Notes under the pieces: generated by a model
The model's input: only the letters and a program-made list of their open reading frames with translations
The model's database searches: none
Told to the model about the DNA's origin: nothing
Made by a program: the position numbers and the translations under genes
Assembly (NCBI GenBank): GCA_047967505.1
Contig: CM106538.1
Length of the DNA stretch: 64,000 nucleotides
Origin: Dipteris shenzhenensis
Lineage: Eukaryota
Reading direction: 5' to 3' (one strand)
Shown here: in pieces, positions 27,279 through 61,900 of the stretch
How the letters are laid out: each line of letters opens with the position of its first letter
Position numbering within the stretch: the stretch's first letter is position 1

Positions 27279-30229
27279 GGATCCAAAAGCTGAGAAGTGC
27301 ATCTTCATTGATTATTCTCTGCAGCAGAAAGGCTATAGATGCTATAACCTTTCTACTCGTAAGTTTACAGTGAGTAGAGATGCTTTTTTTAATGAGATGA
27401 GCAGCTGGTATAAACCAGTAAATGTGATTGATGATGTAGATGCACAAAATGGTCAGTGGACATGTAGTGTCCTCTAGCAGTGATTCACATACTTCGCCAT
27501 GGATAGGCAGATTGAGATCAGGAGAATCTCCTCAAAGCAATGCAGATAGTGGTATGCAAGTATCACGAAAGGAAAAAGAGAAAGTAGATCAGCCCATGGT
27601 TGATGTGAATGCAGGTCACTCTTATGTGGATGGTGAATCCAGTGGCTCAGAACAGAGCCTTGATGATGAGTTGGGTATTCCTTCTGTTGTTACACCTGAA
27701 GTAAGGAAGACAAAGGATGTTTTGAGAGTACCTGGTAGTGAGCCTATTTTGCGCAGGTCTACCAGAGTTAAGTATCATGTGGATAGGCTGAAATATGATG
27801 GAGTTACAGCCATTCACTATGCCTATATGATCAAAGTGATACATAAACCAGAACCCACTTCTTTTGAGCAAGCCATGGGAAAAGAAAAATGAGAGAAAGC
27901 TATGGTTGAAGAAATGGATGCTTTAGAAGCAAATGCTACATGGGAATTGGTGTCTTTGCCTAACGACAAGAATGCAATTGGCTGCAAGTGGGTCTATAAG
28001 GTGAAGCACAATGCAGATGGTTCTATGAGCAGATACAAGGCAAGATTAGTTATCAAGGGGTATGTACAGACATATGGCATTGATTATGAAGAAACATTCA
28101 GTCCGGTTGCAAGGATGGCAACCGTAAAAGCAGCCATTGCTATGGGTGCATCAAAGGGATGGTCTTTACATCAGATGGATGTAAAGAATGTCTTCTTGCA
28201 TGGTGATTTGCAAGAAGAGGTCTATATGGAGCAGCCATCAGGTTATGTGCATGATGTTTATCCTGAGTTTGTTTGCAGGTTGAAGAAAGCCTTGTATGGC
28301 TTGAAGCAAGCATCAAGAGCATGGTCTGATAAAATAGGACAGTATCTTGTCACTATAAGCTTTCAAATTTCCACGGTAGATTTCTCACTTTATGTGAGAA
28401 AACAGAGAAAGGTATTATGCTGCTTGTCATTTATGTTGATGATTTGATCATCACAAGTGATAGTAATGAAGATATCATTCATGTGAAAATGCTATTGAAG
28501 CAGAAGTTTGAGATAAAGGATTTGGGAAAGCTGCATTACTTCTTGGACATTGAGGTGATTAGATTCACAAGTGGAATATGGCTCTTGCAGAGGCAGTATG
28601 GATTGGACATGCTGTCCAAATATGAGATGACAGGCTGTAAGCCTATTTCAGTTCCTTTGGAGCAAAACGTGAAGCTGAGCGCAGATGCAGGTGAGCTTCT
28701 GAAAGATCCTACTATGTACAGACGCATAGTAGAAAGTTTGATTTATATGACTATTGTCGTGCCAGATTTGAGCTATGCTGTTAGGTTGGTAAGTCAGTTT
28801 ATATAAGCTCCAAGGAAATCGCATTTGGATGCGGCTAGACGCATACTGAGGTATGTGAAGTTCACATTGTAGTATGGACTATTTTATGAGACTGGGGTTC
28901 AGATACAGTTGCATGGATACACTGATGCTGATTGGGTTATTTCTGATAGACGATCTACGAGTGGATATGTGTTCTCTTTTGGGAGTGGTGCAGGCTCCAA
29001 GGAAATCGCATTTAGATGCGGCTAGACGCATACTGAGGTATGTGAAGTCCACATTGTAGTATGGACTATTTTATGAGATTGGGGTTCAGATACAGTTGCA
29101 TGGATACACTGATGCTGATTGAGCTGGTAGTATTTCTAATAGACGATCTACCAGTGGATATGTGTTCTCTTTTGGAAGTGTTGCAGTCACTTGGAGCAGC
29201 AAGAAACAACCTACAGTTGTCTTATCGAGCACAGAGACTGAGTACAGAAGTGCAGCAATGGTTGCATGTGAGGTAGCTTGGTTGCGTAAGCTACTTTATG
29301 ATATGCATCAGTCTACAGATGGGTCAGTTGTCATTTATTGTGATAACATGAGCAGTATACACTTGGCAAATAGCCCAGTCTATCATGCTAGAACAAAGCA
29401 CTTTGAGGTGCATTATCACTATGTGCGAGAGAAGGTTCTAGTAGGTTTTATTGATTTGGTTTATGTCAGCACAGAGGATCAGGTAGCTGACATATTCACG
29501 AAGGCCTTGGGTGCAGAGAAGCTGCACAAGTTCAGAGACCTGCTTAGTGTGCAGGATGGGATTGAGCTTGAGGAGGAGTGTTGAGATATCGAGCTCCACT
29601 CGTGATATGTCAGGGTGACTGTTGTGCATTTATGTCACCGACTTGTTAGCTGCAGATGTGGTTGGTACACCGCCCATGAATAATAGCTGGATGACAGCTA
29701 TCTTTATGTACTCTAGTTAGTGGCTCAGTTAGTATGCCACCTAGGTTAGCTGAGTTTGGTATGAGACCCACATATAGGGTTCATCTATTCCTTTTGTACT
29801 AAGAGAGAGTTCTTTTGGCTTACATAACTAAGAAGAGGAAAACTGTTTTCAGCCTCCACCTTTGTGTGTATTCCCCCATTGTGTATGTGAGAAAGTTGCA
29901 AGTGAGACTCCTTACTTCTCTCCCACTAACTTCACACAAGGTACAAGGGTCGATGAGAAATGCCGTCATGTCAACTAGGATAGATGAAAAAAGGAGTACA
30001 AGGTACTTGTACCTAGACCTAGGACTAAGTGTCTTAGGTGTCACATAGGACTAAGTGTCCTATGTGGCCTAAACGGCACTAATACTACAAGTGCCTATAT
30101 TTATGCCTACAAGGCACATATCATGGCCTATAGGGCATCACAAGGACATGTGGCCCAGTCACTATCCGTGTAAGCATGCATAGTAAGTGAACCCTAATCA
30201 CCATGGAAGAGGGCTAAATCCTGAGTGCA

Positions 30230-34340: not shown

Positions 34341-35569
34341 TCACGATCTGACCCAACTGTGACTATGGCAGGCAATGTTCACTGCAAAAACAGCAAATCT
34401 GGCAAAAGCCCCAAATTTAATGAGGGCAAATAGGCCAAAAAGAAGGCAAATGCAGAAAAGCCCCAAATTTTGCTGAAATTTTTGCAAATGTGACCCAATG
34501 TATAGCCTCAAGGCTTGAAAATGCAAAAATATGAGTTACTGTCCCAAACACCAGTTGAAATTGAGCTCCCAACACAAAAGCCCCAAATTTTGTTGACCTA
34601 AGTGATGACGTGGCACAATGTGACAGTCCTAAACCTGAAATTAACTGAAAACTTCAATTTTTGGAAGGATTTCAGTTGTCAACCTTGTCCAAAGTATTGT
34701 ATTGATTGGTTGAAGGTCCAGATGTCAAAAGCCCTAAATTTTTTTGTTGGAAATTAGGGTTTGACAAAAAAAACTGTCAAAAACAGTAAAATACTGCAAA
34801 TGTTGCTTGTGAATCAGCTTCTGGTCCTTTGAGATTAGGACTGAGGCTCAAAAGGCCTCTGTAGGTAGAGTATAACCAACCACGAAGCTGCTGCAGCAGG
34901 TTGAAGTGCAAAAGACAGCTGGAGCGTAGCTGGAACAGCCCTTAGACACCTCGAACTTAGTGCGTGGCTGGTAGTATCTCCTTTGGAGGGCTCTGAACAG
35001 GTCGCGATAGCAGAACGTCTTCAGCAGATGACTGTGGAGAGGTCACGGGAGCTAGGCGCTTGGATCTGGGTCTGGTCAATGTCGCGGGAGCTAGGCGTTT
35101 GGAACAACAGTACAAAGGTGACAATAGATGGTCATGGGTACTGTGGAGGACCTCGAAAATGCTGCAGCTGAAGCCTACAAGCAGTCGCCTCAGTTTGGGA
35201 ACAACAATGAGGCACTTTGTGGCGACGAAAAAACACTAGAAGCCTTGGACAACAGTTGGAGGAAACGTACGGGATCTATACGTATTTGTACGGACAGTAC
35301 GGAAAAGAGGTGTAGGAAGCAGAGCTGGGCTCTGATACCACTAAAGGGTCGCGTAGACAAAAGAGAGCACGTACAAGGTACAAGGGTCGATGAGAAACGC
35401 CGTCACGTCAACTTGGATAAATGAAAAAAGGAGTACAAGGTACTTGTACCTAGACCTAGGACTAAGTGTCCTAGGTGTCACATAGGACTAAGTGTCCTAG
35501 GAGGCCTAAAAGGCACTAACACTACAAGTGCCTATATTTATGCCTACAAGGCACATACCACATCACTAG

Positions 35570-41259: not shown

Positions 41260-42639
41260 TGTAACCGGCCCTTGATCACAAAGGACAGTGTACCTGTCTC
41301 TACTATCTCACAAAACTGAAAATACAGCCAACTTGAAAGATTGCCTTTGTCCACAAACAAAACTCAGAGCATAAAACTTCACTGTATAGCATCATGGAAC
41401 CATTTAAGACAAGGGAGGCTAGAATGCCCCTACTCGGAAGCATAAAGAGTGACACTTATTGGCCCCAACACTTGGCGCCCCTTGCGGTATTTATTTCATT
41501 ACTGGTTAGCTCAAGGTACAAAGGGACTCCCTTCAAGAGCTCACCCGCAGAGGTGCAACCCAATACAATGCCAACCCGTGGCTGTGCTAGTGACCAACTC
41601 CTAGTGCTATTCCTTTGGTTCCTTTCAAAAGTCATGCATAACACAAATAGACCAATCTAACAACATACCAAGCAATGCATTCACACATGTCCAGCCAATA
41701 CTGAGCCCAAGGCTAGCCACTGCAACCCCAAGAAGAGAGTATCACAACCAGTGCCCCAATCCTCTCCCGGGCCAACGGCAAGGCATCCAACCTAGCAGAA
41801 ACTCAGTAAGAATGGCAGTAGCATAGAGTAGGAAGAGAAGATGAAAATTCAGCCAACAGAAAGAGCCTGTTTCAGCCTGGAACAGCTCCAGAAGTAGGTT
41901 GAATAGCGGACAGCAAACTCTGGTAGGAGGGAGCTGCCTATGAGTGTCTTCCAGCACCAGAAAAGATCAGAAAAGAGTGCGTCCACCAAGCTGTAGGAAA
42001 TCCACCATGAATGCGTCCTCCAGAATGGAGTTTCCAGCCCACAAACACCTCAGAACTCAGTGCGCCTTGCACCAGACAGAGGCCAGGAGTATATGGCCTC
42101 ATATGCAGGAAAGAAGAACTTCTATCTCGAAGAAAGTCGAGAAAAGCTTCAAAAATGGCCCAAAATGGAGGCGTCCGGGTCCAAGAAGCATGCCAACAAC
42201 AGAGAGCACCAAGAGGAGGAGAACTATTGTGAAGAAAGCTCGAAAATCCACTTCAGCCAGCAAGAGGGAGGCTGCAAAAATCCGCCATGTTGAGAATGAA
42301 GTAGAAGTCTCAAATCAGCAAGGAAGGGAAAGGAAGGGCTCCAGAGCCTTCCAGGGACTTCCAGGGGTGACACCTAGGTGCCACAAGGCAAGCAGAGAAG
42401 CCACATGCAGACACATGTACTAAATGAGACGTGGGATTTTTGTTAGAAATGACCCAACAAAGGGTACGCACAGCGGAAGACTGATAGTAATGCCCAGGAG
42501 CTCACACAGTGTGCGTGTGGGATGTGGAATCACAAACTCCTTAACTTATGTGCATAAAATAGATGTGCAGACTCATCAATAGACAATGCACCAGCCAGAT
42601 AGAGAAACCACCAAAATCATATATTTCCATCCAAAACTA

Positions 42640-43820
42640 TGGACACAATACAAAAGAGATAGATCCAGAGTCCCACCAATGGTGTGGTCCTCTAATCTTA
42701 CCACAAGGTCCTCCTCCTATCTGCTAGTTATCTCTAGACTCGAGCTCGCGTGCTCCAACCTTGAGCGTCTATAGACTTTCCGTCCAGTGTGTTCTTCTCC
42801 ACCTTACTGCCTATGAATCAGCCTAGGTGGGCAGCCCTTGCCAAGCTTTGTCTGCACCACACAGGTCCCCTTGGTCCTTGTGAATGTAGGCCCCAAGATA
42901 GCTGTTCCACTACTCCAACCTACTTGTGAATGGCTGCTCCAGAAGATGATGATCTCAGCAACCTTCTGTCCTAGAAGACAGTCTAGGTTCAGCCTCTCCC
43001 TGGAGCTAAGTCTGCAGCAACACCTCTCTCCTTCACTTCCTGTGTAGAGGCCCAAGGATGGTGGATATGCTACTCCTTTCTGCTCCTCCCAAAGCTGCTT
43101 GGCTGGATGTGAAATGAGGCCCAGGGCCTCTCCTTGTATAGGGCTCAAGGCCCCCTTGAACCAACCGACCAGCCAGCCCTAAATGGGCCGACTGGCTGGT
43201 CTGCTAGGTTGGCTGGCCAACCGACCTGGTTGGCTCAGCCCAACCAGCCCTGCGGATGTGAAGAACACTAAGCTGTGGCATGAGAGGTTTAGTCATCTAA
43301 ACCTTAGTTCTTTGAAGGAGATGCATAAAAGTAGAATGATTGCAGACCTACCAGAAATTTCAGATCTGTCCGATATATGTGAAGCTTGCATGATGGGCAA
43401 GCAGCATCGGCATCCCTTTCCTAAAGATGCCAGCAAGGCAAAGGCTCCTCTAGAGGTCGTTCACACGGACCTCTGCGGAAAGATGGAGACGGAAGCTTTG
43501 GGTGGTTCCTACTACTTCATGACGTTGATCGACGACTACAGTAGAAGGATATGGATATACTTCCTGAAGACGAAAGACGAGGCTTTCAGTAGGTTCAAGG
43601 AATGGCATGTAATGGTCGAGGAAGAATCGGGGAGGAAGATGAAGAAGTTGAGATCAGATGGAGGTGGAGAGTTCACATCGACTGAATTTGAAAGTTACTG
43701 CAAAAGTCACGGGATCAAGAGGTAGAAATCCCCGTCACATACATCCGTACCTTCTTTGTACTGAAGCGCTGTCTGTCCTTGCTGGAAATCCCTGCGCAAT
43801 CAAGCTGCTGCAGGTCCCTG
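42640..43820 (-). repeat. Partial duplicate of the Gypsy F LTR, interrupted by a Copia fragment
   Basis: 42640-43250 matches 49826-~50447, and 43735-43820 matches ~50637-50724. Confidence 0.9.
43251..43730 (+). pseudogene. Isolated Copia GAG-pre-integrase/rve fragment
   Basis: LWHERFSHLN...CEACMMGKQHR...HTDLCG...IDDYSR...LRSDGGGEF; no LTR or TSD. Confidence 0.9.
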
Positions 43821-46800
43821 GGGATTGTTTGGGATTTGTCCCATACTTTGTTGCAGGTTTTGTGACAGGCTGAGGTGTTTGGAGCCTTTTTCAGTGGACA
43901 AAACAGTGTATGACAAGTGGTTTATGCATATAAAATCAGTGCAATACCTCATCTGAGGTGGGAGAAGTGTCCAGGACAGCAGTGTTTTGTGCTTCGTCAG
44001 ATGATGATGCACTGATAAAGCACTTGTGGAACAGCTACAGCATTCTGAAGTTACTGTTTTATGCCTATTTGAGCACGGTACAGTGTGTCAGAAGGTACAG
44101 TGACTGGAGGGAAAATTCTGTTTTGCTGCAGATTTTTTGACAGTACAAAACAGAACTATTGTGAGTGCTCCTGGCTCTTGATAGAGCAGGTTTTCTGAGA
44201 AATCAGAATTTTATTTAGTCATTTTTGACTTACAGGGAGTCAGGCACTTTCCTTATCTGATATGGCATCAGGGGGAAGTGAATCCTCAATACTAAACATA
44301 AAGAAATTGGAAGGGGCACACAATTATGCATTATGGGCAGAACAGTGTTTGAATGTACTTTTGCTAAAGAAGATTTCTAAGCCCATAAGGGTGAAGGGTG
44401 TCAAGCCATCTGGGATGGCAGATGATGAGTGGGAGGAGCTTGATTTGTCCGCAAGGGCTGCTATCATGCTTACTCTCACTGATTCTCTTGTGTTCAATGT
44501 TCAGGCAGAAATGTTCAGGCAGAAAAGACCTCTTATGGCCTATGATAGAGGCTAGAAGAGTTGTATGCCCAAAAGAGTTCAGCCAGTAAGGTTTATTGGT
44601 TGAAGAAGCTTGTCGACCTTCGCATGAAGGAAGGTACAGCTATGACCTCACACTTGAGTGAGTTCAATGCCATCTTTACACAGCTTAGGGGACGAGCATT
44701 TTCTGAGCGAAATCTTCCGAGTGTCCGAGCGAAGGAAAAAAAAAGCTTCCAACTATGCATAAATATGGCAAAAATCAATCAGAAGAAAACATAGTTTCAC
44801 TTAGAAATATGCAAAGTATTATAGCAATGCCTATTTTATACAAAAATCTTTAGGTGAATCTGTAGGAATGGTGAGAGCATAATGGGATGGCTTTTGAAGA
44901 AACCCACATGTAGAGTAGACTTCTCTATGAAAATTCCCTTATGATCCTTCTTACAACTTTTACTTAATAGGGGGTGACATTGAAAACCCTCTCTCAACCT
45001 ATCTTCATGAAAGAGTTTCTTCAAAGAAAACTCATTGAAGCAAGCCATCCAGGTAGTTTCGCCAGCGAAACCCCTTTGAAGCAAGTCTCCCAAGGTAGTT
45101 TCGCTGGCGAAACTACCTTGGACAGCACTTTTAAAAGTGACATAACTTTCATATCCAATGTCCAAATATAGTCATTCAACCACTCAAATTGATCGGAACA
45201 CCCCATTTGAGCACATCTATGAAGTTATATTTTGGAAAATCTTTCATATATAGTATTAAATATTACATGTATTTTATGAGAGTGATATATAAGCCCAAGT
45301 TAATACTTATTTATAGTAATTTAGACTTCTTTAGAAACATGTCCATAAATATGCTATAAAAACACTAAAAAGATATTGCCATATGATATAAATGTGTTAA
45401 TAAGTAATTATATATGCATAGTATTATTACATTGAGAGTGATTATGAGGAATGTTTCTTAAAGGAATCAACACTTTTTTAAGGTAATAACAGGGGTACAA
45501 AGGGATGTCTCTAAATAAGAAAATTATGTTGTGTAAAAATGAATGAGTGACTAGTCTGTATATTTTTATGATAAAGGGATCTAGTTCTAGTGAAAATAAA
45601 AGTGTAAAAACCATGTTTCCTAAAGAAAAACATTTTTAAAAATCTCTTGAAAAACACGCTCGGATAAACCTGCTCATAGGTTTTTGCTCGTAAAATTGAC
45701 GCATCCACACAGCTTATCGCACAGGGATTGAACCTTGATGAGGAGTTCAAGGCTACTTTCTTGTTGTGTACCCTCCCTGAGAGTTGGGACACTTTCAAGA
45801 CCACCCTGTCTAATTCAAATGTCACTCTTATGTATGCTGATGTGGAGAGCTCTCTTCTCATGGAGGAGATGAGCAGGAAGAATAATGCGGGCAGCAAGTC
45901 TTCCAATGCTTTGCAAGTACAGGAAAGAGGTAGGACTCAGCAGAAGGGGAGATCTGCTGGCAAGTCCAAATCCCGCAGTCAGTCCCGTGGCAAAAAGGAT
46001 ATTGAATGCTTTTACTGTGGCAAGAAGGGACATGTGAAGTCTAAGTGCTTCAAGTTTATACGGGATCAGAAAGCCAAGAAGGCTGAGACAAAGTATGCAG
46101 GCAGTGGAAGCAAAGGCAAAGGCAAGGCCAAGGCAGATGACTTGGATGCATTGAATGTTGCAGCAGAGGACAGTGACAGTGACAGACATGATGTATTATG
46201 TTCTTCTGCTGTAATTGCACATACATTGGTTGTTGATGGCCATGACATGCACACCTGGCTCTTGGATTCAGGTGCTTCTTTTCATGTTACGCCTCATAGG
46301 GAGTGGTTTACTTCCCACACAAGTACTCATGGAGTTGTTCACCTTGGGAACAACTATGCATGTCAGATTGCAGGGATTGGCAGTATACAGATAGTATTCC
46401 CTGATGGACGCATATTTATGCTTGATGGTGTTCGCCATGTGCCGCAAATCAAGAAAAATCTGATTAGCACTGGCTTGTTGGATGACAGTGGTTACCACAC
46501 CACATTTGGGGATTCCAAATGGGTGATTACTGATGGCCAGGTTGTAGTGGGTGAGGGTTATAAGAGTGATACCTTGTACCCTCTTTATGTTTCCAGTGCA
46601 GGTAATTGGCATAACCGAGCTGCCAAAGGTTTCATTGTGGCATAGCCGGTTGGGACACATGTCCGTTAAAGAAATGCAAGAACTGTCACGTTTGGGTTGT
46701 CTGCCGTCTCTTTCTTTTTCAGATTTGCCTACTTGTGATCATTGCATTTTTGGAAAGCGTTCTATGACTCCTCATAAGAGGAGAACTCCCCAAAATAGAG

Positions 46801-49800
46801 CACCGCTTGATCTAGTGCACACTGATTTAGGTGAGATGCCACAGCTATCACTAGGGGGTGCAAAGTATTTCATTACTTTTATTGATGATGCCACACGCAA
46901 AGTGTGGGTCTATTTCTTGAAGCATAAGAGCGATGCCTTAGATGCTTTCAAGAAGTTTGTCGCTCAGGTTGAGAATCGGACAGGACGCAGGCTGAAATGC
47001 CTCAGATCCGATAATGGGGGTGAGTATGTGTCACCTGCTTTTGTACAGTTATGCGAAGCTAAGGGCATTAAACAGGAACTCACAACCCCTCATAATGCAT
47101 CTCAAAATGGTGTGAGTGAGCGGATGAATCGAACTATTCAGGAGAAAGTTCGATGTATGTTGTCTTATGCTGCATTGCCCCATGGCTTTTGGGCAGAAGC
47201 CGTGCAAACAGCAGTTCACCTAATTAACAGGTCGCCGAACAAGGCTTTGGAATTGAAAGTGCCAGAGAAGGTGTGGTCTGGCAAGCCACCTTTATATAAG
47301 CATTTACGTGTGTTTGGCTGCGAGTGCTTTGCTCATGTACGCAAAGAACTGCGCACCAAACTGGAGCCAAAGTCTTTCAGATGCATCTTCATGGGTTACG
47401 GTGACGAAGGTGAAATGGGGTAAAGGTTATGGGATCCCGTCAAACGGAAGATTATACGCAGCAATGATGTCATCTTTAAAGAGGATAGTGTACACAAAGA
47501 ACCCGTGCAACCTGTGGAATACAGAAGGGTTGTTTATGATGATGTCGGACAGCAAAGAATGCCCATTAATATGCAGCAGCAGGCTGCTGTAAATAACCCT
47601 GTTCAAGAGGGTATACAGGCTGAAAATCAGCCAGACAATTTTGCCAATGATGCATCACTGGATATGCCAGCAAATGGCGCTGTAGAACAGCCAAATATGG
47701 TGGTACAGCCACCCGTCATGCATGACGAACAAGCTAGACAGCAGCCTATTACGGAACTTTTTGTTAGGAGGAGCACCCGTGTACAACGGCCTCCTGACAG
47801 GTTTGTTCCAGGAGCCAATAATGTGGCTGATTTTATCATGCTGACAAATTGTGGTGAGCCTTCCAGCTTCAAGGAAGCTATGGGAAGAACAGAGAAAAGG
47901 AAGTGGGAGAAAGCCATGCAGTCAGAAATGGACTCCCTACTTCAAAATGATACATGGGACTTGGTGCAGCTACCTGCAGGCAGAAAGGTTTTGCCATGCA
48001 AGTGGGTTTACAAAGTCAAAGTGGATTCAAATGCTTTACCGAGGTATAAGGCCAGATTGGTTGCCAAAGGATTTAAGCAGGAGAAGGGCATTGACTTTGA
48101 TGAGATCTTTTCCCCTGTAGTCAAGATGACTACTTTGAGAGCAGTGTTAGCTCTTGTTGCTCATGAGGACATGGATTTATATCAGATGGATGTGAAGACT
48201 GCTTTTCTTCACGGAGATTTCCATGATGAGATCTACATGAGTCAGCCAGAGGGATATGCTATTAAAGGGAAAGAGCAGCTTGTGTGTAAGCTCAAGAGGA
48301 GCTTGTATGGACTCAAGCAGGCGCCAAGAGAATGGTACAAAAAGTTTGATGCCTTCATGCAGTCCCAAGGGTATCATAGGTGTGAGACCGATCACTGCTT
48401 GTACACCAAACGGGCAAAGGATGGCAGTTTGATGCTACTCATTCTATATGTGGATGACATACTGATTGCCAGCAAATCTCAGCAGGAGATTATTGCTTTG
48501 AAGAAGCAACTACATAAGTCTTTTGACATGAAAGACTTGGGTGATGCAAATCACATACTAGGTATGCGGATTACTCGTGACAGGTCTAAGGGACTTTTGT
48601 TTCTGTCACAGGAAGAGTACATTGGCAAGGTACTGCAGAGGTTTAAAATGGAGGGGGGGAAGTCTATTAGTACCCCGTTGCCTCCTCATTTAAAACTTAG
48701 CAGTAAGGACAGCCCCAGATCAGATGATGATAAGGCTGAGATGGCCAAGGTTCCATATGCATCTGCAGTTGGTTCTTTGATGTATGCCATAAGTCTATTA
48801 GTACCCCGTTGCCTCCTCATTTAAAACTCAGCAGTAAGGACAGCCCCAGATCAGATGATGATAAGGCTGAGATGGCCAAGGTTCCGTATGCATCTGCAGT
48901 TGGTTCTTTGATGTATGCCATGGTTGCCACTCGTCCGGATATTGCTTTTGCGGTGGGAGTCATCAGCAGGTATATGGCAAATCCAGGCAAGCGGCACTGG
49001 GAAGCAGTGAAAGGCGTCTTGAGGTATCTCAAGGGTACCAAAGACTTGTGCATATGCTATGGTAGGCAGGATGCATCGGTGCATGGTTTTACAAATTCAG
49101 ACTATGCAGGAAATGCAGATAACCGGAAGTCTACTACCGGTTATATTTTCACATTTGCAGGAGGTGCTATATCATGGGTGTCTCGGTTGCAGAAATGCAT
49201 TGCACTGTCAACCACTGAAGCTGAATATGTTGCAACCACTGAGGCTTGCAAGGAAGCAATATGGCTTACTCGGCTGGTGGGAGATTTGGGCATTACAGGA
49301 GATATGCCAGTTTTGCATTGTGATAGTCAGAGTGCTATCATGTTGGCAAAGAATCCGGTCTTTCATCAGAAGACCAAGCACATAGATGTGAAATACCACT
49401 TCATCAGGGAGGTACTGGAAGACAAGCGGCTTGAGCTTGTGAAGGTGCATACTGATGATAATCCTGCAGATTTGCTCACTAAGAGCTTGCCTACAGAGCG
49501 GTTTGCACATTGTCGCCACATCATGGGATTAGGATGAGACCATTCTTATTTTATGGTCTTGTATACAGTAACTGTATATTGCTGTAATTTTTATTCTTTT
49601 CTCCCCTTTAGGCACATTGGCCTTTAGGTGGGAGGTTGTTGGGGTAAAGGCACATTGCCACCCTTTAAAAGTTATGACCCCTATGACTGTCTTAAGACAG
49701 TCATAGGGTGAATCCCTAATCCTAATAAAACCTATGAGTTTGTGGTGTGGCTCAACACATGATACACACCCACACTCCTTGTGTCTCTCTGTCTCCATCG

Positions 49801-49825
49801 TTCCACCCCCTCTCTTTTCCTCACA
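43821..49825 (+). mobile_element. Copia element E, 5' LTR and PBS lost
   Basis: gag ATG at 44262, zinc knuckle, WLLDSGAS, INT, RT and RNase H to the stop at 49537; PPT ttaggtgggag; 3' LTR 49637-49825. Confidence 0.93.
44688..45706. mobile_element. Non-autonomous MULE-like DNA transposon, 1,019 bp, in the gag of E
   Basis: 10-bp TSD ACACAGCTTA (44678-44687 and 45707-45716); degenerate GG-starting TIRs; removing it restores gag (FTQL|IAQGLNLDEE). Confidence 0.85.
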
Positions 49826-51530
49826 TGGACACAATACAAAAGAGATAGATCCAGAGTCCCACCAATGGTGTGGTCCTCTGATCTTACCACAAGGTCCTTC
49901 TCCTATCTACCAGTTATATCTAGACTCGAGCCCGCGTGCTCCACCTCGAGCGTCTGTAGACTTTCTGTCCAGTGTGTTCTTCTCCACCTTACTGCCTGTG
50001 AATCAGCCTAGGTGGGCAGCCCCTGCCAAGCTTTGTCTGCACCACACAGGTCCCCTTGGTCCGTCTGAATGTAGGCCCCAAGATAGCTGTTCCACTGCTC
50101 CAACCTGCTTGTGAATGGCTGCTCTAGAAGATGATGATCTCAGCAACCTTCTGCCCTAGAAGACAGTCTAGGTTCAGCCTCTCTCTGGAGCTAAGTCTGC
50201 TGCAACACCTCTCTCCTTCACTTCCTGTTCACTTCCTGTGTAGAGGCCCAAGGATGGTGGATATGCTGCTCCTTTCTGCTCCTCCCAAAGCTGCTTGGCT
50301 GGATGTGAAATGAGGCCCAGGGCCTCTCCTTTTATAGGGCTCAAGGCCCCCTTGAACCAACTGACCAGCGAGCCCTAAATGGGCCGACTGGCTGGTCTGC
50401 TAGGTTGGCTGGCCAACCAACCTGGTTGGCTCAGCCCAACCAGCCCTACAAGGGCCCTCTTGCTGGCCCTTTTGTACCCGCCTTGCCACGAGGCACTGCG
50501 CCACTGGCCCAGGCCATATGCGCCCTATTGCGGGCCTTCTTGCAGGCTCCAGCCTGCCCTGTTTGCAGCACCATGGTTGCGCCTCTCTGCTGCAGCAACC
50601 TTGCCTCCTGCCAGGTCTATACCAGCCCTATACAGCCACGTATGCATCCCGTACCTTCTTTGTACTGAAGCACCGTCTGTCCTTGCTGGAAATCCCTGCG
50701 CAATCAGGCTGCTGCAGGTCCCTGATGTCCACGTGTCTGCCCCATACATCAGGAGCTCCACGACTTGCTAGGTACCCTTCATGCTAGCCCATTGGCCATG
50801 TCCGGATAGCTGCCCACATGGCAGCCTGTGTGCTGCCCATGTGGCATCCCCAATATCCCCTGGTCTACCTCCCCCATGCTCTCCTCATTTGGGGGCTTAC
50901 AGATGGGGAGGTGACCTTTCCAACAATTTTAATGCGCCTAGGGGGTCAAATGGCACACCATGACCCTAATGCTTGGGAACAAATGACCCTAGTTTGTAGG
51001 ATCTCTAGGGGGTCAGTTTTTAAAGAATGACCCCACTGAACCAAACCAATGACCTTAGAAATTGAAACCACTCTAATAGCACCAGGAGTTGCACTTATTG
51101 CACATGAAATCATAGGTACCTTTTGGGCATTAACTAAGGCCCCTAGCTTGGTACCCTAGGTTAAATTTAGTGATAGTTAGTTTAGACACTTCACCACCAC
51201 CACCACGTCCCCGTGACATACCCCCCTCTTGAAACAACAAACTATCTTGTTTGCTGTCCCAAAATTACAGGAAATAGAAAAGGGTGTCACAATAGGCATA
51301 AACAGCCCATGATCAATAGTAGTACATCGCATGAAGTACCAAAAATAATATGTACATACAACAGGACTGCAGATCCATTCGTTATCAACCAACTGGAGTG
51401 TCATGATCACTCATCATAGAAGTCTCACGGCAGAAACACTGTCAGCATCAGTGCCTTGGGTGAAGCCGTAGTGTCACCAAGCGACCTCTAGATATCCTGT
51501 GAGCCTGTTCGCACTGTGGGTGCGGAGGTG

Positions 51531-51673: not shown

Positions 51674-53495
51674 GAGCATCCGGTAATGCCCTAGACCTAT
51701 GATGTGCTAAACTGGCATGAGTCGCTACCGCAGTAGGATCGAGACCAAATGCCTCAAGGTAGAGCTGTAAAACCTGAGGTGGATCTGCCAATTCACTCTC
51801 TTCCATCCAAATCGCATCGTTCGTAGGATAATTCTTGCACTTCACTCGATAGCGTCTGGCAACTCTACCATTAACCTTCCGATCCTTATGTGCCACAATC
51901 TACTCAGGAATCAAGACCTCATCTTGCTCATCAACTTCAGATTGCTCTTCAACTGGCATATCCTGTGGCACTTCTTCGTGAAAAGGCTTCAACAAGCTAA
52001 CATGGAAAGCATTGTGGATGGTCCACTGCTTGGGTAACTTCAACCTGTAAGCTACCTCATTGATCTTCTCAAGAACTTGAAAGGGGCCTTAGTACCTCAT
52101 ATTCAGCTTGGTGTACAGCTTTACCTTCCCTTTCTTGTTCCTGAGGTATGCCTTAAGAAAACGCAGCAAGACCCAATCACCTTTTGTCAAGGCCAGGTTC
52201 CTGTGATGATTATTTGCAGCTCTTTTCAGCTTGTCCTAGCTGCGTTGGAGGGCATACTTAACCTTTTCATAGGCTGCCCGCAAGTCCTCCACATACTCAT
52301 TTGCCACAAAAATCTTCTCTTTTGTATGCAAAATAGGAGGAACCTTTCTCGCTCCTTCCACTATTTCAAACAGTGCCTTACCCGTAGAAGAGTGCACTGT
52401 ATTGTTCTACGCATACTCAATCAATGGCAAATAATGTTCCCACTTCGCTTTGTGCTCAAACACATAACAACGCAGTAAATCCAAAGCTGTAGAATACGCC
52501 TCTTCTGATTGACCAGCAGATTGTGGATGATAAGAAGATGAAAACAGCAGTGAGGTACCCATGTCATCAAACAAACCTCTCCAGAACATGCTGGTCATCC
52601 GTGGATCTCTATTGCTCACGATAGACTGAGGCATCCCATGGTACTTGAAAATAGATTTCAAGAACTCCTTTGCCATCTGCTCGGAAGTAATCTTCTTCCT
52701 TACTGGAATGAAATGAGCCATCTTGTTGAATCTGCAAATTATGGTCCATATGTCATCATGACCAGGAGGAGTGCGAGGGAGATCAAAAACAAAATCCATA
52801 GCGATGCTCTACCATGGTCTATCTGGTATAGGCAAAGGCTGACGTAAATGGGGCTGTTTTTGCCCGTCATACTTCACCTTTTGACAAGCGATGCATGTCC
52901 TGACATAAGCCTCAACATCCTTTCATAAAGACGGCCAATAAAAGTAGTGCTCTACTGCTTTGATTGTAGCCTCAATACCCCTATACCCTGCATACGGTGG
53001 GGCATGACTTTCAGTGAGCACCTTATGCCTCAATGGCTGCGTTACATGTGGAAGGGAGAGTGTGAGAGCACACACACACACAAGCAGGATTTGCAAAACA
53101 AGGAGTGTGGGGATAAAAGGTATGTGTGTACCTCCCCTAGCACACAGTGAAGCTTTTATATAAAGGGATAAGGTTACAACACTAAGTACGGTGTACTTAG
53201 TGTACTTAACTTTACTTGGGTGGCCATAGAGCCTTTACCCCAACAACGTTGTGGAAGGGAGAGTGTGAGAGCACACACACACACAAGCAGGATTTGCAAA
53301 ACAAGGAGTGTGGGGATAAAAGGTATGTGTGTACCTCCCCTAGCACACAGTGAAGCTTTTATATAAAGGGATAAGGTTACAACACTAAGTACGGTGTACT
53401 TAGTGTACTTAACTGTACTTGGGTGGCCATAGAGCCTTTACCCCAACAACCTCCCACTTAAAGGCAATATGCCCTCAAGTAAAAATAAATGAGGC

Positions 53496-56400
53496 TCAAC
53501 CTATACCCATCAACTGTCGGCAATGTGCAAACCGCTCTGCAGGCAAGCCTTTTGTCAATAGATCTGCTGGATTATCATCTGTGTGAATCTTGACAAGCTG
53601 AATCAGCTTATCATCTATCACTTCCCTGATGAAGTGATACTTCACATCAATGTGCTTTGTCTTTGCATGAAAGACAGGATTGTGTGCCAACTGAATAGCA
53701 CTCTGACTGTCACAATGCAACAATGGAATATCACCCGTAATGCCCAAATCTCCCACTAGCCGAGATAACCATAAGGCCTCTTTGCATGCCTCTGTGGCTG
53801 CAATATATTCAGCTTCCGTAGTAGACAAGGCTATGCACTGCTGCATCCTTGACATCCATGACACTGCACCTCCAGTGAATGTATAAACATAACCGGTAGT
53901 AGATTTCCGGTTATCGGGATGACCAGCAAAATCTGAATCCACATAACCATGCACCTTTGCATCTCGCTTGCCAAAGCATATGCACAACTCCTGTGTGCCC
54001 TTCAGGTATCTCATGATGCCTTTCACTGCATTCCAATGCTTCTTGCCTGGATTTGCCATATACCTGCTAACTACTCCCACTGCAAATGCAATATCAGATC
54101 TGGTAGCAACCATGGCATACATGAGACTGCCACAAGCTGAAACATACGGAATCTTGGCCACTTCAGCCCTATCAGCATCTGAGTGTGGGCTGTCCATTGC
54201 ACTGAGTTTCACATACGGAGGCAATGGAGAACTAAGGGTTTTCCCCCCTTCCATATGAAACCTGTGCAATACTTTGCCAATATATTCGGTCTGAGACAGA
54301 TACAACAAACGCTGTCCCCTGTCTCTCCGTATCCGCATTCCCAGTATGTGATTTGCATCACCAAGGTCCTTCATGTCAAAGGCCTCATGCAGTCTTTTCT
54401 TAAGGTCATCAAGCTCCTTACGAGCTGTACCAGCAATAAGCATGTCATCCACATATAAAATGAGAATGATTAATCTGCCATTTGCAGCCCTTTTGGTATA
54501 TAAGCAGTGATTGTCATCACTTCTCCTGAAGCCTTGGGACTTCATGAAGGTATCAAATTTCTTATACCATTCCCTTGGTGCCTGTTTCAGCCCGTAAAGG
54601 CTCTTTTTAAGCTTGCATACAAGTGACTCCTTGCCCTTGACTGCAAATTCTTCTGGCTGCTGCATGTAGATCTCCTCATGAAGATCACCGTGAAGAAAGG
54701 CTGTCTTCACATCCATTTGGCATAATTCCAAATTCTCACATGCAACCAAAGCAAGTACAATCCTGAGTGTGGTCATCTTAACCACTGGAGAAAAGATCTC
54801 ATCAAAATCAACACCATACTCCTGCTTAAAGCCCTTGGCAACCAACCTGGCTTTATACCTTGGCTTAGCTCCAGGTGTGACTTTCAATCTATACACCCAC
54901 TTGCATGGCAGTACTTTCATGTCCTTAGGCAACTGCACCAATTCCCAAGTACCATTTTTATGGAGACTGTCCATTTCAGACTTCATGGCTAGTTCCCATA
55001 GCCTTTTGTCATGCATTTGCACGGCTTCCTTGTAACAGGAAGGTTCTCCACAATCTGTAAGCATAATAAAATCTGCTCCTGGAACAAATCTGTCTGGCGG
55101 TTTCATTTGTCTAGTGGACCTTCGGACCCATTGGTCTTGCTGTCCAACTTGCTGCTCACCTAAAACAGGTTGCTGTTCTAGTAGATCAGGCTGCAGAATT
55201 ATGCCTGGGAGGTCTTCCAAAGGTGGCATGTCCCGTAGTACATCTTCCGCCACTGCGGGCTGTCCATTTGGACCTGCTGCAGCATCATGCATTGGCTGAT
55301 TACGCTGCTGTTGTGGCTGATTTGCAGCCTGCCTGAACTGTACAGGATGTCCCAAGTCATCAATGTCAACCTTTGAAGCATCAGAAGGCTTATCTGCTGT
55401 CTTAAACATACATGACTCATCAAATAAGACATCATTACTGCGTATTAGCTTCTTATTCACAGGATCCCATAGGCGGTAACCCATCTCACCACTGTCACCA
55501 TATCCAAGAAAAATGCATTTAAGAGACTTAGGATCAAGCTTGCTGCGATTTTCTCTGCGTATATGCACGTACGCAGTGCAGCCAAAGACCCTCAAGTGCT
55601 TATAGGAAGGAGGTTTTCCTGTCCAAAGCTCCTCTGGCACTCTGCCATCTAGTCTTTTATTTGGTGACCTATTGATGAGGTGTACTGCTGGTTTTTACAG
55701 CTTCAGCCCAAAATCCATGAGGTAAAGCAGCATGTGACATCATAGAGCGAGACTTTTCCTGTATGGTTCTATTCATACGCTCTGCAGTGCCATTTTGCGC
55801 TGGACTGTAGGGAGCAGTGAGTTCTCTTTTAATACCTCTAGCATCACAAAATGCATTGAATGCATTAGACATATACTCCCCACCGTTATCTGACCGCAAA
55901 GCCTTCAGTGTTCTGCCTGTTTGGTTCTCAACCATAGCAAGCCATTTCTGGAACACTGGAAAAACATCACTCTTCAATCGAAGAGGATACAACCACACCT
56001 TCCTTGTGGAATCATCTATAAATGTGACAAAGTACCGTGCACCTCCAAGTGAAGGACTAGGCATCTCACACACATCTGTATGCACAAGCTCAAGTTGAGC
56101 ATCTTTATGTCCTAATCTCCTTTTATGAGGACACTGTAACTGTCTACCATATATGCAGTGCTCACAAAACTTTAAATCAGAAAATTTAAGAGACGGTAAG
56201 TAGCCAAGGCGAGCCAATTGCTCCATTCCACTTATGCTCATATGTCCCATCCGGCTATGCCACATAGAAATATTCGGCAGCTCGGTGGCATGAATATCAA
56301 CATGATTACATACTTTAGCATGAAGAGTATACATTGTGTCTACCTTAGAGCCTCTGGCAACAACCAGGGCACCTTTAGTGACCTTCCAGAAACCATGACC

Positions 56401-57600
56401 AAAGCTGGTCACAAAACCTTCGTCATCCAACATGCCAGTAGAAATCAGATTTTTCTTAACTTCGGGTACATGCCTAACATTTTGAAGCATAAGCTGAGTA
56501 CCATCAGCAAATACAAGCCTGACATCTCCAATACCAACAATGCTGCATGCATGATTATCCCCTAGAAAAACGACTCCATTACTGCCTGCTGCATATCTTA
56601 CAAACAATTCTTTGTAAGGTGTAACATGGAATGAGGCACCTGAGTCAATGATCCAAGAGTGCATGTCTGCAAGATCTCCTGCATGGAGAGAATGAGCATC
56701 CAAAGTAGAGAGAAATAGAACCTCTCCCTCACTGTCATAACCGTGTGTAGAATGAAGCTCTTCAATCTTCACACTGCTCTTTCCATTGCTTACTGGTACA
56801 ATTGCTTTTGCATCTGACGCATCAGTATTTTTGGCTTTGTCTCTCTTATCATTTTTCAGTTTAAAGCACTGCTTTTTAGTATGTCCCTTTTTGCCACAGT
56901 AGTAGCACTCAACATCTTTGTTGGAGCGGGACTTACTCCTCCCTTTTCCCCTTTCCTGAGATTTGCCTCTTTGCTGACTTCTCCCCCTTGCATTTAAGGC
57001 ATTATTAGGCTTTACTGCATCTTGAGCTTTCAGCTTCTACTCTTCTTGCAAAATCAGCCCGGTAATATCTGAAAAACTTATGAAAGTGTTTGCATTTGTT
57101 ACAGCTGTGGTGAATGTATCCCAACTTTCAGGAAGAGAAATCAAGAGTGCCATACCCTTGGTTTCCTCATCCACCACATATTTTTGATTTGCAAGTTGAG
57201 TGACAATTGAATTAAACTCATTGAGATGTGCATCCATGGAGGTCCCTTCCTTCATCTTCAGATTGAAGAACTTGCGCAGCCAATATATCTTTGTAGCTAC
57301 ACTCTGCTGCTCATATGTGTCCTGTAGCTTTTTCTACACGCCCCAGGCTGTTTTCTCACCATCCACATTCCAAACAGCACTCTCATGGAGTGACAATTCA
57401 ATTATGGACTTTGCTGACAGATCAGATAGTGCCCAAGCATCATCAGATGTGCCAGTGGGCTTCACACCTTTGTGTATAATAGGAGCATGAAACTGCCTGA
57501 GAATTAGCACATTCAGGACCATCTTTTTCCACATTGGGTAGTTAGCAGCACCTTGCAACTTTTTAATATTGAGAAGAGAAGATTCCGAGGATGAAGCCAT
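53496..57600 (-). pseudogene. Copia G gag-pol with a few disruptions
   Basis: Runs from MASSSESSLLNIKKL to FAHCRQLMGIG; breaks near 57334, 57037 (TAG) and 55669. Confidence 0.93.
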
Positions 57601-58499
57601 TACAATCAGCAAAAAATATAACCCACACTTGGGTGCTTGACTCCCTGCAAACTAAGTGCACAGATGCACTTGTAGTTGTGCTCAAAAGTTAATTCCTGCA
57701 ATTTTCTCCCACTTAACAGTAAATACTGTTTGTTTCCTGCCGGCTGCAGATCCAGAAAAGTAATACTTAATGCATTAATTGAGGCTCTGTAGTACAGTAC
57801 AGCAGTACCTTGATTTGACACAATGTATGTCCCTGCTGTAACAGTGAAAACAGCACTGTTTTATGCACTTTAAACTTCAGTAAAGTGACTGTTTACAGTC
57901 CAAAAAATTGACTCCGGACAGTACCCGACTGTACTTTCTAGTACAGCAACAGAAATTGACTGTATAACTGTCCAAAACTGTCAGAATTAGACTCTCTCTT
58001 GCCTCTATAACTGTGTTACACAGTTTAGAACTTGAATGAGGCAAAAGCCCCTTGACTAGAAGCCAATTTTGAAGATTTTAGTGCATACACAGCTTTCCCA
58101 AAGCTCCTCTGATCACATAAAGCATCCAGGTGTTTCCCCAAACACTGATATGCATAACAATGTCAAAAGCCCCAATTCATATGCATCTGCCACTGTCCCG
58201 TAAGTCATAAAATGCATCAAATCCTTGCACAAATCAACTCTAATCAGGAGGATATACGCAAATATGTGCGTGTAGAAGCCAATGCTTGGCTGTGGCTGCA
58301 AAAGCCCCTTGATTCCACAGTTCAGAAATGAGAATTTCTCTCACATTGGAGGGGGTAGATCTGCAGATCTACCTCACTGACAACAGAAGGAACCAAAAAA
58401 GACAACCTGTCCCCGAGCTCTCCAGCTCTCCAGCGATAACGTGAACCTGTGGCCACGTATGGCTCTAACGGCGGATTTGATGGTGGCCTTGGCCCGGGC

Positions 58500-58965
58500 T
58501 AGCGCCGGTGGCTGCTGGTGAGCCGATGGCGTCGCTGTCGGGCGCCGTTGGTTGCTGGTGGCCTGCTGGCCGCTGGCGTCGGTGGCCTGCTGGCCCTGGC
58601 TGGCGCTGCTAGTCGCTGGCGTCGGTGGCCTGCTGGCCGCTGGTGTCGGTGGCCTGCTGGCCCTGGCTGGCGCCGCGGTATTAAAGGGCTGCTAGCGCAG
58701 CGCTAGCAGCTGAAGGTGCCGTTGGCTGCTGGCTGATGGCGTGGAACTAAGCCTAGCGATGGCTGGGCCTGGCGATGGCTGACCGACGAGGCTGGAAAGG
58801 GGCAAGTTTTTTGCAGGATGTCGATGCTGCCTAGCGATGGCTGACCGACGAGGCTGGAAAGGGGCAAGTTTTTTGCAGGATGTCGATGCTGCCTAGCGAT
58901 GGCTGACCGACGAGGATGGAAAGGGGCAAGTTTTTGCAGGATGTCGATGCTGCCTGGCGATGGCT
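58500..58965. repeat. GC-rich short repeats (58500-58680) and a 62-bp x3 tandem repeat (58772-58965) in the G leader
   Basis: ggtggcctgctggcc units; gcgatggctgaccgacgagg...tgcct units at 58772, 58834 and 58896. Confidence 0.92.
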
Positions 58966-61900
58966 GGCGGTGCCCCTTGGCTGTTGGTAAGACCCACGTT
59001 TGGGCACACCCACGTTTGGGCTCTGATACTAGTTGTGGAAGGGAGAGTGTGAGAGCACACACACACACAAGCAGGATTTGCAAAACAAGGAGTGTGGGGA
59101 TAAAAGGTATGTGTGTACCTCCCCTAGCACACAATGAAGCTTTTATATAAAGGGATAAGGTTACAACACTAAGTACGGTGTACTTAGTGTACTTAACTGT
59201 ACTTGGGTGGCCATAGAGCCTTTACCCCAACATTACACACAGCTTTCCATGCATCATCATAAATCCCTCCTTGAGTGTATAATGATCATGCTGATTGCCC
59301 TCCTTAAGCTGATCATATATACGTGCAAAAGCATCATCTGTACCATACTGCTCTTTCATGGTATCAAGCTCATTGTGATAAGAAATAGTAACTGCAGATA
59401 CCTGTGGTTTCTTGGACATAGCTTCCGTACGTGGCCTTCTGGAAAGTGCATCAGCCACTACATTTTTCTTTCCAGCCACATGCACAATCTGAAAATGAAA
59501 AATGGAAAGGAAGGTTGCCCATCTCATGTGCTTCTATGACAACTTTCTGTAAGTTAGAAAGTATCGCAGCGATTGATGATCAGTTTGCACATAAAAATCA
59601 GCACGCAAAGGATAGTGCTTCCACACAGTGAGAGCATGAATTACAGCTACCAACTCTTGCTCATATACATTCATGTTGTGTTCAGCATCTCGGAGTAGCT
59701 TGCTCTCATATGCAACCACTCTGCCTTCCTACATAAGAACTCCACCAACACTATTGCCGCTTGCATCACATTAAAGAACAAAAGGCTTTCGCAAGTCTGG
59801 CAAAATGATGACAGGATTAGAGCATAGCTTTTCTTTCAGCTCATTAAATGGTGCAATTTCTTTCTTTCCCTAACGGAAAGGCATTGCCTTCTTTTGCAAA
59901 GCATGTAAGGGTGAAGCTATCTCAGCAAAATAGCGAATGAAGCGCCTGTAGTATGAACACAAGTCAAGAAAACTACGGACTTCATGTAGGTTCTTTAATG
60001 GAGGCCAATTCTTGATTGCCTCTATCTTGGCAAGGTCCATCCTCACTCCATCTCGTGAGATGATGTGTCCCAAGAAATGTATCTCTGGCATGAAGAACTC
60101 ACTCTTCTTTGTGTTGACCAGCAAGTTGTGTTTCGTGAGTTCTGCAATTACAACTGCCAAGCGTCGCCTATGCTCCTCTTCATCTTTCGAGTGCACAATA
60201 ATGTCATTAAAGAATGTACCCACAAACTTCCTATGCTCTCTGAAAATGCGATCCATCATACGATTTAAGGGAGCAGGAGCATTAGTCAAACCAAATGGCA
60301 TGACAAGAAACTCATAAAGCCCAAAAGTGGTCCTGAAGGCAGTCTTATGTACATCTTTGGGCCTGATTCGTATCTGATGGTAACCACTCTTCAAGTCAAT
60401 GCGACTGAAGATGGCTGATCCCTCTAATCGATCCAAGATGTCATCAATGCGTGGAATAGGAAATCGATTCTTGATTGAGATCTTATTCAAAGTCCTATAA
60501 TCAATACACATTCTCCAAGATCCATCCTTCTCCTGCACAAGTAGAACGGGAGAACAATATGGAGAAGAGCTTGGCTGAATCAGCCCCTTCTGTAACAATT
60601 CATTCACCTAACACATGATCTCCTTCTGCTGTGCCGCACTCACCTTGTATGGTGGTCGGTTAGGTGGAGAAGTGCTAGGAATGATATCAATGGTATGATC
60701 TTCTAGCCTCTCAGGAGGTAACTCCTCTGGGAGTTAATTTGAAAAATAATCTTGAAACTGAAATACACACTCAGTTTGCTCTTTTTCGAGCTTGAAAAAG
60801 TTAGAGTTATCCTCAACTGGTTCTTTTTCTTTGACAAAAATCAAATACGATGAAAGATGCTTTTTTCATTACAGAAGAAATCGCCGAAGCGGATACAACT
60901 GGGACTAATTCTCCCTTTGAGTTTACATCTATGACTTGGGTTTTACCCCTATAAGTCAAGGTAAGCTTCTTATCATGTCTATCTATGATAGCATGCACAT
61001 GGTACATCCAAGGCATCCCCAACAAAACATCACACTCAGGTAAAGGCATCACATAGAAATCCTCATATTCCACATATCCCTGAATGTGAATCCGTAGCTT
61101 CCCTATCATAGGAGTGACAGGGGTACTTAGCTCGAGACTAGCCATGTTGGCCTCACAAAGAGAACCAATCTCCTCTGGTTGAAGACCCAACTGAGCTGCA
61201 AGTTCAGGAGTAATGAAATTTGCTTTGCTGATGTGCACATATTTGTCTTCTTCTCATCATGCTCACCCCCAATGATGTCAGGTATGTGGCCAGCACTCGG
61301 CTTGGGTTTCTTGCCTCTGGGGTCCTCTCTATTGCCTTGATTAGAGTCAGCCCGAGTTACTGCAGGTTCTTTCCTCTTCTTGCTAGGACAATATGCTGCC
61401 CTATGACCTATCTCTGTGTAGAGAAAACACCTCCCTTCAGCAAACATCTTATTTCTCTCTTCAGGAGTGAGAGAAGAGGGCTGCTGTTTTCTCCTTTGTC
61501 CCGCCACAAACTTTGATTTAAGAGGGACTTTTCCAGCTTGCTGTGGTTTCTTTGGCTCCTCCTTGAAGTTGCTTTTGAAACCTAAGACTCTGCCCTGCAT
61601 GAGTAAGCTGTGTTGGCATTCTCTATCAACTGTGACATGCTAGAAATGTGTGTCTTGGTGCAATAGTCCCTCAACTCTTTGGGAAGACCACAACAATACT
61701 TTTCAGCTTGCTCTGAAATGGGGACTGTTTTGTAAGAGCTCACAAGTAGAAGCGCATCCCAAAACTTCTTGTTGTAATCTTCTAGATTCCTGCATTCCCT
61801 AGCATTCAAGTTATGCCACTGAGTCATGACATCCACTTCAATAGTGGTGAGCCATGCAGCTGAGAATGCCTTTTTCAATTCAACTCATGTAGCAGGTGTT

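Follow-up and report, generated by a model that had tools for sequence, protein, structure and literature searches.

Within the window (the whole 64,000-nucleotide stretch of Dipteris shenzhenensis DNA that was analysed, from contig CM106538.1 of assembly GCA_047967505.1), a Ty1/copia element on the minus strand at 53047-59232 carries three 199-bp LTRs inside a single target-site duplication (TSD). Two of the LTRs lie end to end, separated only by ACGT. We propose that this joint derives from unprocessed cDNA ends that were ligated to each other, which we consider probable. The way in which the joint reached the chromosome is inferred: the fuller statement, that a 2-LTR circle served as partner in recombination or templated repair and that a cDNA-end joint was fixed there in this way, has in our view a little less than an even chance of being correct. 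The evidence comes from a single locus, confirmed at the level of the assembly, which is neat and potentially instructive.

Three LTRs in one target-site duplication

We delimited the element by reading the sequence, by repeat search, and by base-by-base comparison. In the sense direction, the order is 5' LTR (L3), AC, primer-binding site (PBS), internal region, polypurine tract (PPT), GT, 3' LTR (L2), ACGT, and extra LTR (L1). The parts are as follows (coordinates, strand, feature, and basis).

53042-53046, no strand: TSD TTACA, on the element's 3' side in sense (sequence reading)
53047-53245, minus: L1, the extra (third) LTR, 199 bp, downstream of the 3' LTR in sense, with a private T at 53212 (repeat search and comparison)
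53246-53249, no strand: spacer ACGT between L1 and L2, the centre of a 10-nt palindrome (sequence reading)
53250-53448, minus: L2, the regular 3' LTR, 199 bp, with the majority base at both variable sites (repeat search and comparison)
53449-53450, minus: dinucleotide between the PPT and the 3' LTR, AC on the plus strand and GT in sense (sequence reading)
53451-53459, minus: putative PPT, AAGTGGGAG in sense (placed from the usual layout of LTR elements)
58554-58966, minus: leader region with short tandem repeats, namely 24/43-bp GC-rich units and a 62-bp unit x3.2 (repeat searches)
59020-59031, minus: PBS, TAGTATCAGAGC in sense (motif comparison)
59032-59033, minus: dinucleotide between the 5' LTR and the PBS, GT on the plus strand and AC in sense (sequence reading)
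59034-59232, minus: L3, the 5' LTR, 199 bp, with a private A at 59134 (repeat search and comparison)
59233-59237, no strand: TSD TTACA, on the element's 5' side in sense (sequence reading)

This is the layout of an LTR retrotransposon: direct LTRs with TG...CA ends (TGTTGG...CCACA in sense), a 5-bp TSD, a PBS beside the 5' LTR, and a PPT beside the 3' LTR. The PBS has one mismatch to what we take to be the usual copia initiator-Met PBS motif.

An earlier reading of the letters (the sequence-only reading) had placed all three LTRs within one TSD. The assembly agrees: L1, L2, and L3 have the same orientation, TTACA is outermost, and the limits given for the TSD and the LTRs proved correct when compared base by base. 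The LTRs were also said to differ by 1-2 nt, and we found that 2 of the 199 sites are variable. LTR position 101 (53147/53350/59134) is G, G, and A in L1, L2, and L3, and position 166 (53212/53415/59199) is T, G, and G. L1 and L2 differ at one site, L2 and L3 at one site, and L1 and L3 at two.

Tandem Repeats Finder describes the L1-L2 pair as a repeat with a period of 203, 2.0 copies, and 99% matches (53047-53450). The "201-nt" repeat from the repeat search is the LTR with AC or GT with the LTR; the LTR proper is 199 bp. At the outer ends of the unit, TTACA directly precedes TG and directly follows CA. The extra dinucleotides are absent there and are kept at the internal joint.

The element belongs to the Ty1/copia group

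The internal region between L2 and L3 is 5,585 bp and is coding on the minus strand. We combined the list of open reading frames with Pfam matches.

53499-55694, minus: 732-aa open stretch with an SH3-like integrase C-terminal domain and an RVT_2 reverse transcriptase (ORF list and Pfam)
55672-57036, minus: 455-aa open stretch with a zinc knuckle, a Pol beta-barrel (protease region), gag_pre-integrs, and the rve integrase core (ORF list and Pfam)
57040-57651, minus: gag region, with Retrotran_gag_2 in 57037-57333 (ORF list and Pfam)

Upstream of RVT_2 on the minus strand, the Pfam families are, in order, Retrotran_gag_2, zf-CCHC, Pol_BBD, gag_pre-integrs, and rve. This gives gag, protease, integrase, and reverse transcriptase (RVT_2), which is the Ty1/copia order. 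RNase H had no Pfam match in the stretches of the element that were scanned. Judging from the domain order and the PBS, the element is a Ty1/copia LTR retrotransposon.

There is no intact gag-pol frame. A frame change near 55.67-55.69 kb separates the 732-aa stretch from the 455-aa stretch upstream of it, and in-frame stops (57037-57039 and 57334-57336) interrupt gag. Because of these two stops and the frame change, this copy is coding-defective and is now non-autonomous.

A single insertion in a Ty3/gypsy pol

The element interrupts the pol region of a Ty3/gypsy element, of which Pfam recognises a part on each side.

52407-52808, minus: integrase core (rve) of the host Ty3/gypsy element (Pfam, E 1.5e-5, under Pfam's cut-off)
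59870-60607, minus: RVT_1 reverse transcriptase of the host Ty3/gypsy element (Pfam)

We excised 53047-59237 in silico (6191 bp, which is the element with its three LTRs and one TTACA). A single 139-aa open frame then runs across the join, between RVT_1 and rve of the host pol, and each of the two remaining frames closes within 6-23 residues. Since the frame is restored by this excision, the three-LTR unit is one insertion. Continuity of the host gene across the empty site is judged here from frame and openness only; the flanking stretch at 59238-59533 matches no Pfam family. When the peptide across the in-silico empty site was compared to the rest of the window with local tblastn, it had no match that would indicate a paralogous empty site. 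BLASTN of the flanks found short unrelated repeats and nothing else.

Nested and adjacent insertions are common in the window, so we considered whether a second copy or a solo LTR had landed beside the first. Two such insertions should each have a 5-bp TSD. But the 5-bp flanks of L1 alone are TTACA and ACGTT, those of L2 through L3 alone are AACGT and TTACA, and neither pair matches. The matching duplication is found at the outermost boundaries only, and the four bases between the LTRs are fewer than one TSD. As neither L1 nor L2 through L3 has a TSD of its own, we reject two independent adjacent insertions, to which we assign next to no probability.

The four-letter joint

The feature that the sequence-only reading singled out was ACGT (53246-53249) as the sole spacer between adjacent LTRs, and this is what the assembly contains. 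The two halves of the spacer recur where they were said to: AC is the dinucleotide between the LTR and the PPT (53449-53450), and GT is the dinucleotide between the PBS and the 5' LTR (59032-59033). The palindrome at the joint is also present, as a 10-nt perfect palindrome, ACAACGTTGT, at 53243-53252.

Linear retroviral DNA has two extra bases at each end, which are trimmed by integrase, and the circle junction carries four (PMC11054761). Here, a canonical circle junction made of the PPT-side AC and the PBS-side GT is predicted to be ACGT, with 0 of 4 mismatches to the observed spacer. The joint consists of the U5 end, the U5/PBS dinucleotide, the PPT/U3 dinucleotide, and the start of U3, without loss or gain, and the inverted LTR termini form its palindromic core. 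In the window, the 20-nt junction word is found at this one place, and a match was seen in 1 of 100 shuffles. The locus is not an extrachromosomal circle: in the assembly, there is chromosomal gypsy pol on both sides, and the unit has three LTRs. We therefore view it as a relic of a 2-LTR-circle joint and not as a circle.

We propose that the joint would have formed when a full-length linear cDNA was ligated blunt at its two ends, both of them unprocessed: the U5 end (...CA plus AC) and the U3 end (GT plus TG...). Ligation of this kind would yield the canonical 2-LTR-circle junction, or the junction of an end-joined cDNA concatemer. Integrase would trim the dinucleotides at the outer ends, and an internal joint would keep them.

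The sequence-only reading interpreted ACGT as a circle junction. This holds up in that ACGT agrees at every letter with the blunt joint expected of unprocessed cDNA ends, but the argument is thinner than it was made to appear, partly because a tandem duplication of the LTR plus ACCT would also give three of the four letters. Specifically, the 203-bp unit (LTR plus ACCT) of an ordinary two-LTR element could have been duplicated in tandem, followed by a C-to-G change at 53248, and no cDNA joint would be involved. The duplication predicts ACCT, one base away from ACGT (1 of 4 mismatches), and this is the best of five registers; the remaining four have 2-4 mismatches. Three of the junction letters (AC and T) fit both readings. 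The discriminating evidence is only the G at 53248 and the exact coincidence of the repeat boundary with the LTR end and the TSD. What favours a cDNA joint is one base and a coincidence of boundaries, not four independent letters.

Under tandem duplication, the two copies would differ at 2 of 203 positions, which is similar to the other two-copy tandem duplications in the window. There are three of these (151 bp x2 at 19928, 97%; 337 bp x2 at 20327, 98%; and 131 bp x2 at 48660, 98%). All three are inside coding regions and none is at an LTR end. To account for the joint, however, the duplicated unit must begin precisely with the LTR base that adjoins the TSD and must measure exactly the LTR plus four. 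A mutation must then have occurred at one site, to one base, and must have recreated the PBS-side dinucleotide. We roughly estimate that, per duplication, this coincidence would be far rarer than 1 in 10,000. Also, we saw no microhomology at the implied breakpoints when we read the sequence, and no register predicts the joint from its flanks without a mismatch. We consider plain tandem duplication to be quite improbable and prefer end-joined cDNA as the source of the joint.

A related copia element in the window

Processing of two nucleotides at the ends was reportedly described by Feuerbach in 1997 for Tnt1, a copia element of plants. The one related copia element in the window is at about 42.6-50.4 kb and is 75-79% identical in the reverse transcriptase region. 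It has the same GGGAG-GT-TGTTGGGG boundary, at 49637, with GT between the PPT and the LTR at 49635-49636. This GT would be the only indirect support for the proposed cDNA-end dinucleotides. The 5' LTR and the PBS border of this relative were not found at about 42.6-50.4 kb, and the PBS-side AC is seen in the three-LTR element itself only.

Is the joint an artefact of assembly?

The chromosome might contain a single 3' LTR, with the second LTR and ACGT brought in from reads of extrachromosomal 2-LTR circles or through a loop in the assembly graph. At 199 bp, the repeat is short, and circles in the DNA preparation would supply exactly this joint. But L1 and L2 differ at one base (T at 53212 and G at 53415), which is not expected if a loop was traversed twice. 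This difference implies that the assembly contains L1 and L2 as separate physical copies, and not a single copy that was read twice. Also, the window contains no N, and 2.9 units of a 3214-bp array are resolved at 98-100% identity. The resolved array suggests that the assembly was made from long reads, which would easily span 400 bp.

To see if public data cover the joint, we examined the runs that matched the stretch. Seven runs were returned, and five had some part of it. The best of these contained 0.26 of the 904 sampled words; for the rest, the share was 0.07 or less. Four of the seven runs (X1, X2, X3, and X5) were aligned, and all of their contigs, which fall on the internal region, were from diverged paralogues (mostly 90-99% alike). 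In X1-X3, the depth is zero at 52000-53107 and at 58094-59478. Among the 32 contig pieces that were listed, of 1254 aligned, none is over the flanks and none bridges 53246-53249, so these pieces speak neither for nor against the adjacent LTRs. Overall, we think that an artefact is unlikely, although not as improbable as plain tandem duplication.

We also searched for the joint and the element in larger collections. A 20-mer from the LTR end had 0 matches in both metagenome and viral contigs, and the element's reverse transcriptase protein identified no locus in viral contigs. The junction 20-mer had one match in metagenome contigs (L001), which we attribute to chance: by eye, the surrounding sequence is GC-rich, looks like bacterial coding sequence, and has no similarity to the LTR.

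How the joint may have entered the chromosome

The sequence-only reading offered two routes, either recombination of a circle into a solo LTR or integration of a cDNA dimer that later collapsed. Both are possible, but they are not the only routes: templated repair and read-through RNA are others. Tentatively, and with somewhat less confidence than we have in the fuller statement above, we suggest that a 2-LTR circle wrote the perfect junction into the germline chromosome, either as the partner in recombination or repair or as the template for transcription into new cDNA.

The likeliest route would be homologous recombination or repair between an LTR of the resident copy and a 2-LTR circle of the same family. 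In the non-crossover form (synthesis-dependent strand annealing, SDSA), a break in the resident 3' LTR would be repaired by copying the U5 end, the junction, and U3 from the circle, and the LTR plus 4 nt would be gained in one step. In the crossover form, the circle would recombine into a solo LTR. Either way, the resulting structure would have a palindromic att-like site and, downstream of the element, a second LTR with promoter and terminator. The three-LTR structure has no evident function, and we view it as a heritable scar of extrachromosomal cDNA.

The joint could have the same origin in end-joined cDNA and yet have been inserted by integrase, as part of an aberrant cDNA with multiple LTRs. 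In one version, the cDNA was a ligated dimer (LTR-int-LTR-ACGT-LTR-int-LTR), and the second internal region was later lost by recombination between LTRs. In another version, RNA that read through the junction of a circle or a tandem gave a cDNA in which the LTRs were doubled at both ends, and the pair at the 5' end collapsed afterwards. The single clean TTACA duplication around the whole unit is what integrase leaves. The LTRs are nearly identical, with one private change in each outer LTR, as expected if they were identical at insertion. Furthermore, a path from circle to read-through RNA to tandem copies is proposed in PMC11899658, and loss of an internal region by LTR-LTR recombination is standard (PMC5932611). 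On the other hand, two events are required (an aberrant cDNA and then a precise collapse), no doubled 5' LTR remains at the locus, and a 12-kb dimer is not documented as a substrate of integrase in the literature that we examined. We consider insertion of a multi-LTR cDNA to be rather unlikely, but it is the strongest of the alternatives.

The two SNPs bear on these routes. At sense positions 34 and 99, the haplotypes are G/A in the 5' LTR, G/G in the 3' LTR, and T/G in the extra LTR. If the preferred repair from a circle took place, these would fit a mosaic in which a circle with T34/G99 was copied into a resident copy with G34/A99, with no later mutation. Two private mutations would fit equally well. 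The integrated dimer and the read-through RNA also fit, given two private mutations. By our reasoning, crossover into a solo LTR fits only if there was at least one extra mutation. Two SNPs are insufficient to choose among the routes.

Comparison to known structures

The joint resembles the canonical junction of a 2-LTR circle, which has the U5 end, two bases from the PBS side, two bases from the PPT side, and the start of U3, with a palindromic core and no indel (PMC11054761). In plants, 2-LTR circles of LTR elements form by end joining, and some have perfect junctions (PMC5338827, PMC9324142). "Perfect junction" reads are described for Tos17, Lullaby, and PopRice (PMC5338827). Unlike in a canonical circle, the joint that we describe is chromosomal; it connects a complete element to a third LTR, and one TSD encloses the whole.

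Tandem arrays of LTR retrotransposons (LTR-IN-LTR-IN-LTR, where IN is the internal region) also have more than two LTRs in a single TSD. These include the arrays of Morales-Diaz et al. 2025, the LTRtype classes, and the tandems of Tf1/Tf2 and Ty, and both recombination and cDNA-mediated origins are discussed for them (PMC11899658, PMC5379124, PMC11042837). In these arrays, however, neighbouring LTRs are always separated by an internal region and are not joined end to end, whereas L1 and L2 are 4 nt apart. None of the structural classes that are tabulated in PMC5379124 has adjacent LTRs. A term search of the accessible text of PMC11899658 gave 0 occurrences of "LTR-LTR", "junction", or "circle".

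LTR-LTR tandem junctions were reported at low frequency by McGurk and Barbash (2018), from short-read data for Drosophila populations (PMC5932611). Those junctions were inferred from read pairs. The main text, as far as it was available, gives no locus, TSD, or joint sequence for them, and free circles were not excluded (PMC5932611).

The proposed route has precedents in Tf1 (by Rad52 single-strand annealing) and Ty1, in which cDNA enters by homology at a resident element, independently of integrase (PMC11042837). That paper documents recombination of this kind for Tf1 and cites it for Ty1 (PMC11042837). But the products are tandems that share a single LTR, or conversions, and no circle junction is carried in (PMC11042837).

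Our literature search found no description of a perfect circle joint that sits in a chromosome as LTR-IN-LTR-junction-LTR and is enclosed by one TSD; comparable cases may be listed in Supplemental Table S2 of PMC5932611, which was outside the search. The locus combines known kinds of structure (a complex LTR retrotransposon and a circle junction) in a form that this search did not meet with, and it has precedents in spirit. We therefore do not class it as a new kind.

Implications

The fate of 2-LTR circles has long been disputed. They were once proposed to be the precursors of integration, and this was later dismissed (PMC11054761). They are usually treated as a dead end and as a marker that is absent from chromosomes. 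In recent work, extrachromosomal DNA has been described as sequestering cDNA from reintegration (PMC12951756). If the joint is real, it is evidence at the sequence level that end-joined cDNA of a retroelement can return to the chromosome and be inherited. If the circle-mediated route is also true, then the circles of retroelements help to shape the inherited structure of genomes, and copies with three LTRs are a recognisable scar of this.

There is also a practical consequence. Methods for the mobilome and for eccDNA score LTR-LTR junction reads as proof of circles, and assume that such joints are absent from chromosomes (PMC5338827). A perfect joint in the chromosome would yield false positives for the family of the three-LTR element.

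Finally, the structure is LTR-IN-LTR-4 nt-LTR in one TSD, and the PBS and PPT borders of the element itself predict the 4 nt. It can be searched for in any long-read genome, and genome-wide searches could turn a single curiosity into a countable class.

Tandem duplications in the window

Two of the three 199-bp LTRs of the Ty1/copia element at 53047-59232 (minus strand) lie side by side, at 53047-53245 and 53250-53448, joined by ACGT. One rival to a joint between cDNA ends is a plain 203-bp tandem duplication. Local tandem duplication seems to be frequent in the window, which bears on this rival. Three two-copy duplications, with 97-98% identity, fall within the coding regions of retrotransposons:

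19928-20230, two-copy tandem duplication, 151 bp
20327-20996, two-copy tandem duplication, 337 bp
48660-48921, two-copy tandem duplication, 131 bp

At a larger scale, roughly 2.9 units of 3214 bp (3212 bp for the last), 98-100% identical, follow one another head to tail across 20830-30123. Copia-integrase-like sequence is present in the units, as is a PBS-like word, which recurs at 23331, 26545, and 29757. The units may form a tandem array of LTR retrotransposons with shared LTRs, as described in PMC11899658.

The junction word in public collections

The 20-nt word that spans the ACGT joint had a single public match, at 743-762 of a metagenome contig (L001). The surrounding sequence is GC-rich and resembles bacterial coding DNA. 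The hit is a chance match; given the size of the collection, a 20-mer is expected to match by chance at about this rate.

Leader, PBS, and related elements

The usual copia initiator-Met PBS begins with TGG. The PBS of the copia element (59020-59031) begins with TAG, one mismatch from that motif. Two other elements in the window have the perfect motif, at 8500 (plus strand) and 35329-35340 (minus strand), and there it lies 0 or 1 base past the LTR end, without a 2-nt spacer. The leader of the copia element, between PBS and gag (58554-58966), contains repeats of 24/43 bp that are rich in GC, as well as 3.2 copies of a 62-bp unit (97%).

A related copia at 42639-50447 (plus strand) is 70-79% identical to the copia element in the pol region. 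It has two long terminal repeat blocks:

42639-43251, long terminal repeat block
49825-50447, long terminal repeat block

The start of its LTR is at 49637, where the boundary (PPT-GT-TGTTGGGG) is the same as in the copia element. We searched for its 5' LTR start and PBS and found neither, so this related copia may have undergone truncation or rearrangement.

In a public sequencing run from another organism (X5), 1187 contig pieces match 53400-58300 of the window, with summed word depth in the hundreds, whereas only 23 pieces were placed from the run of the best-matching organism. The copia family, or close relatives of it, is very abundant in the X5 run, and these counts suggest a burst in a relative.
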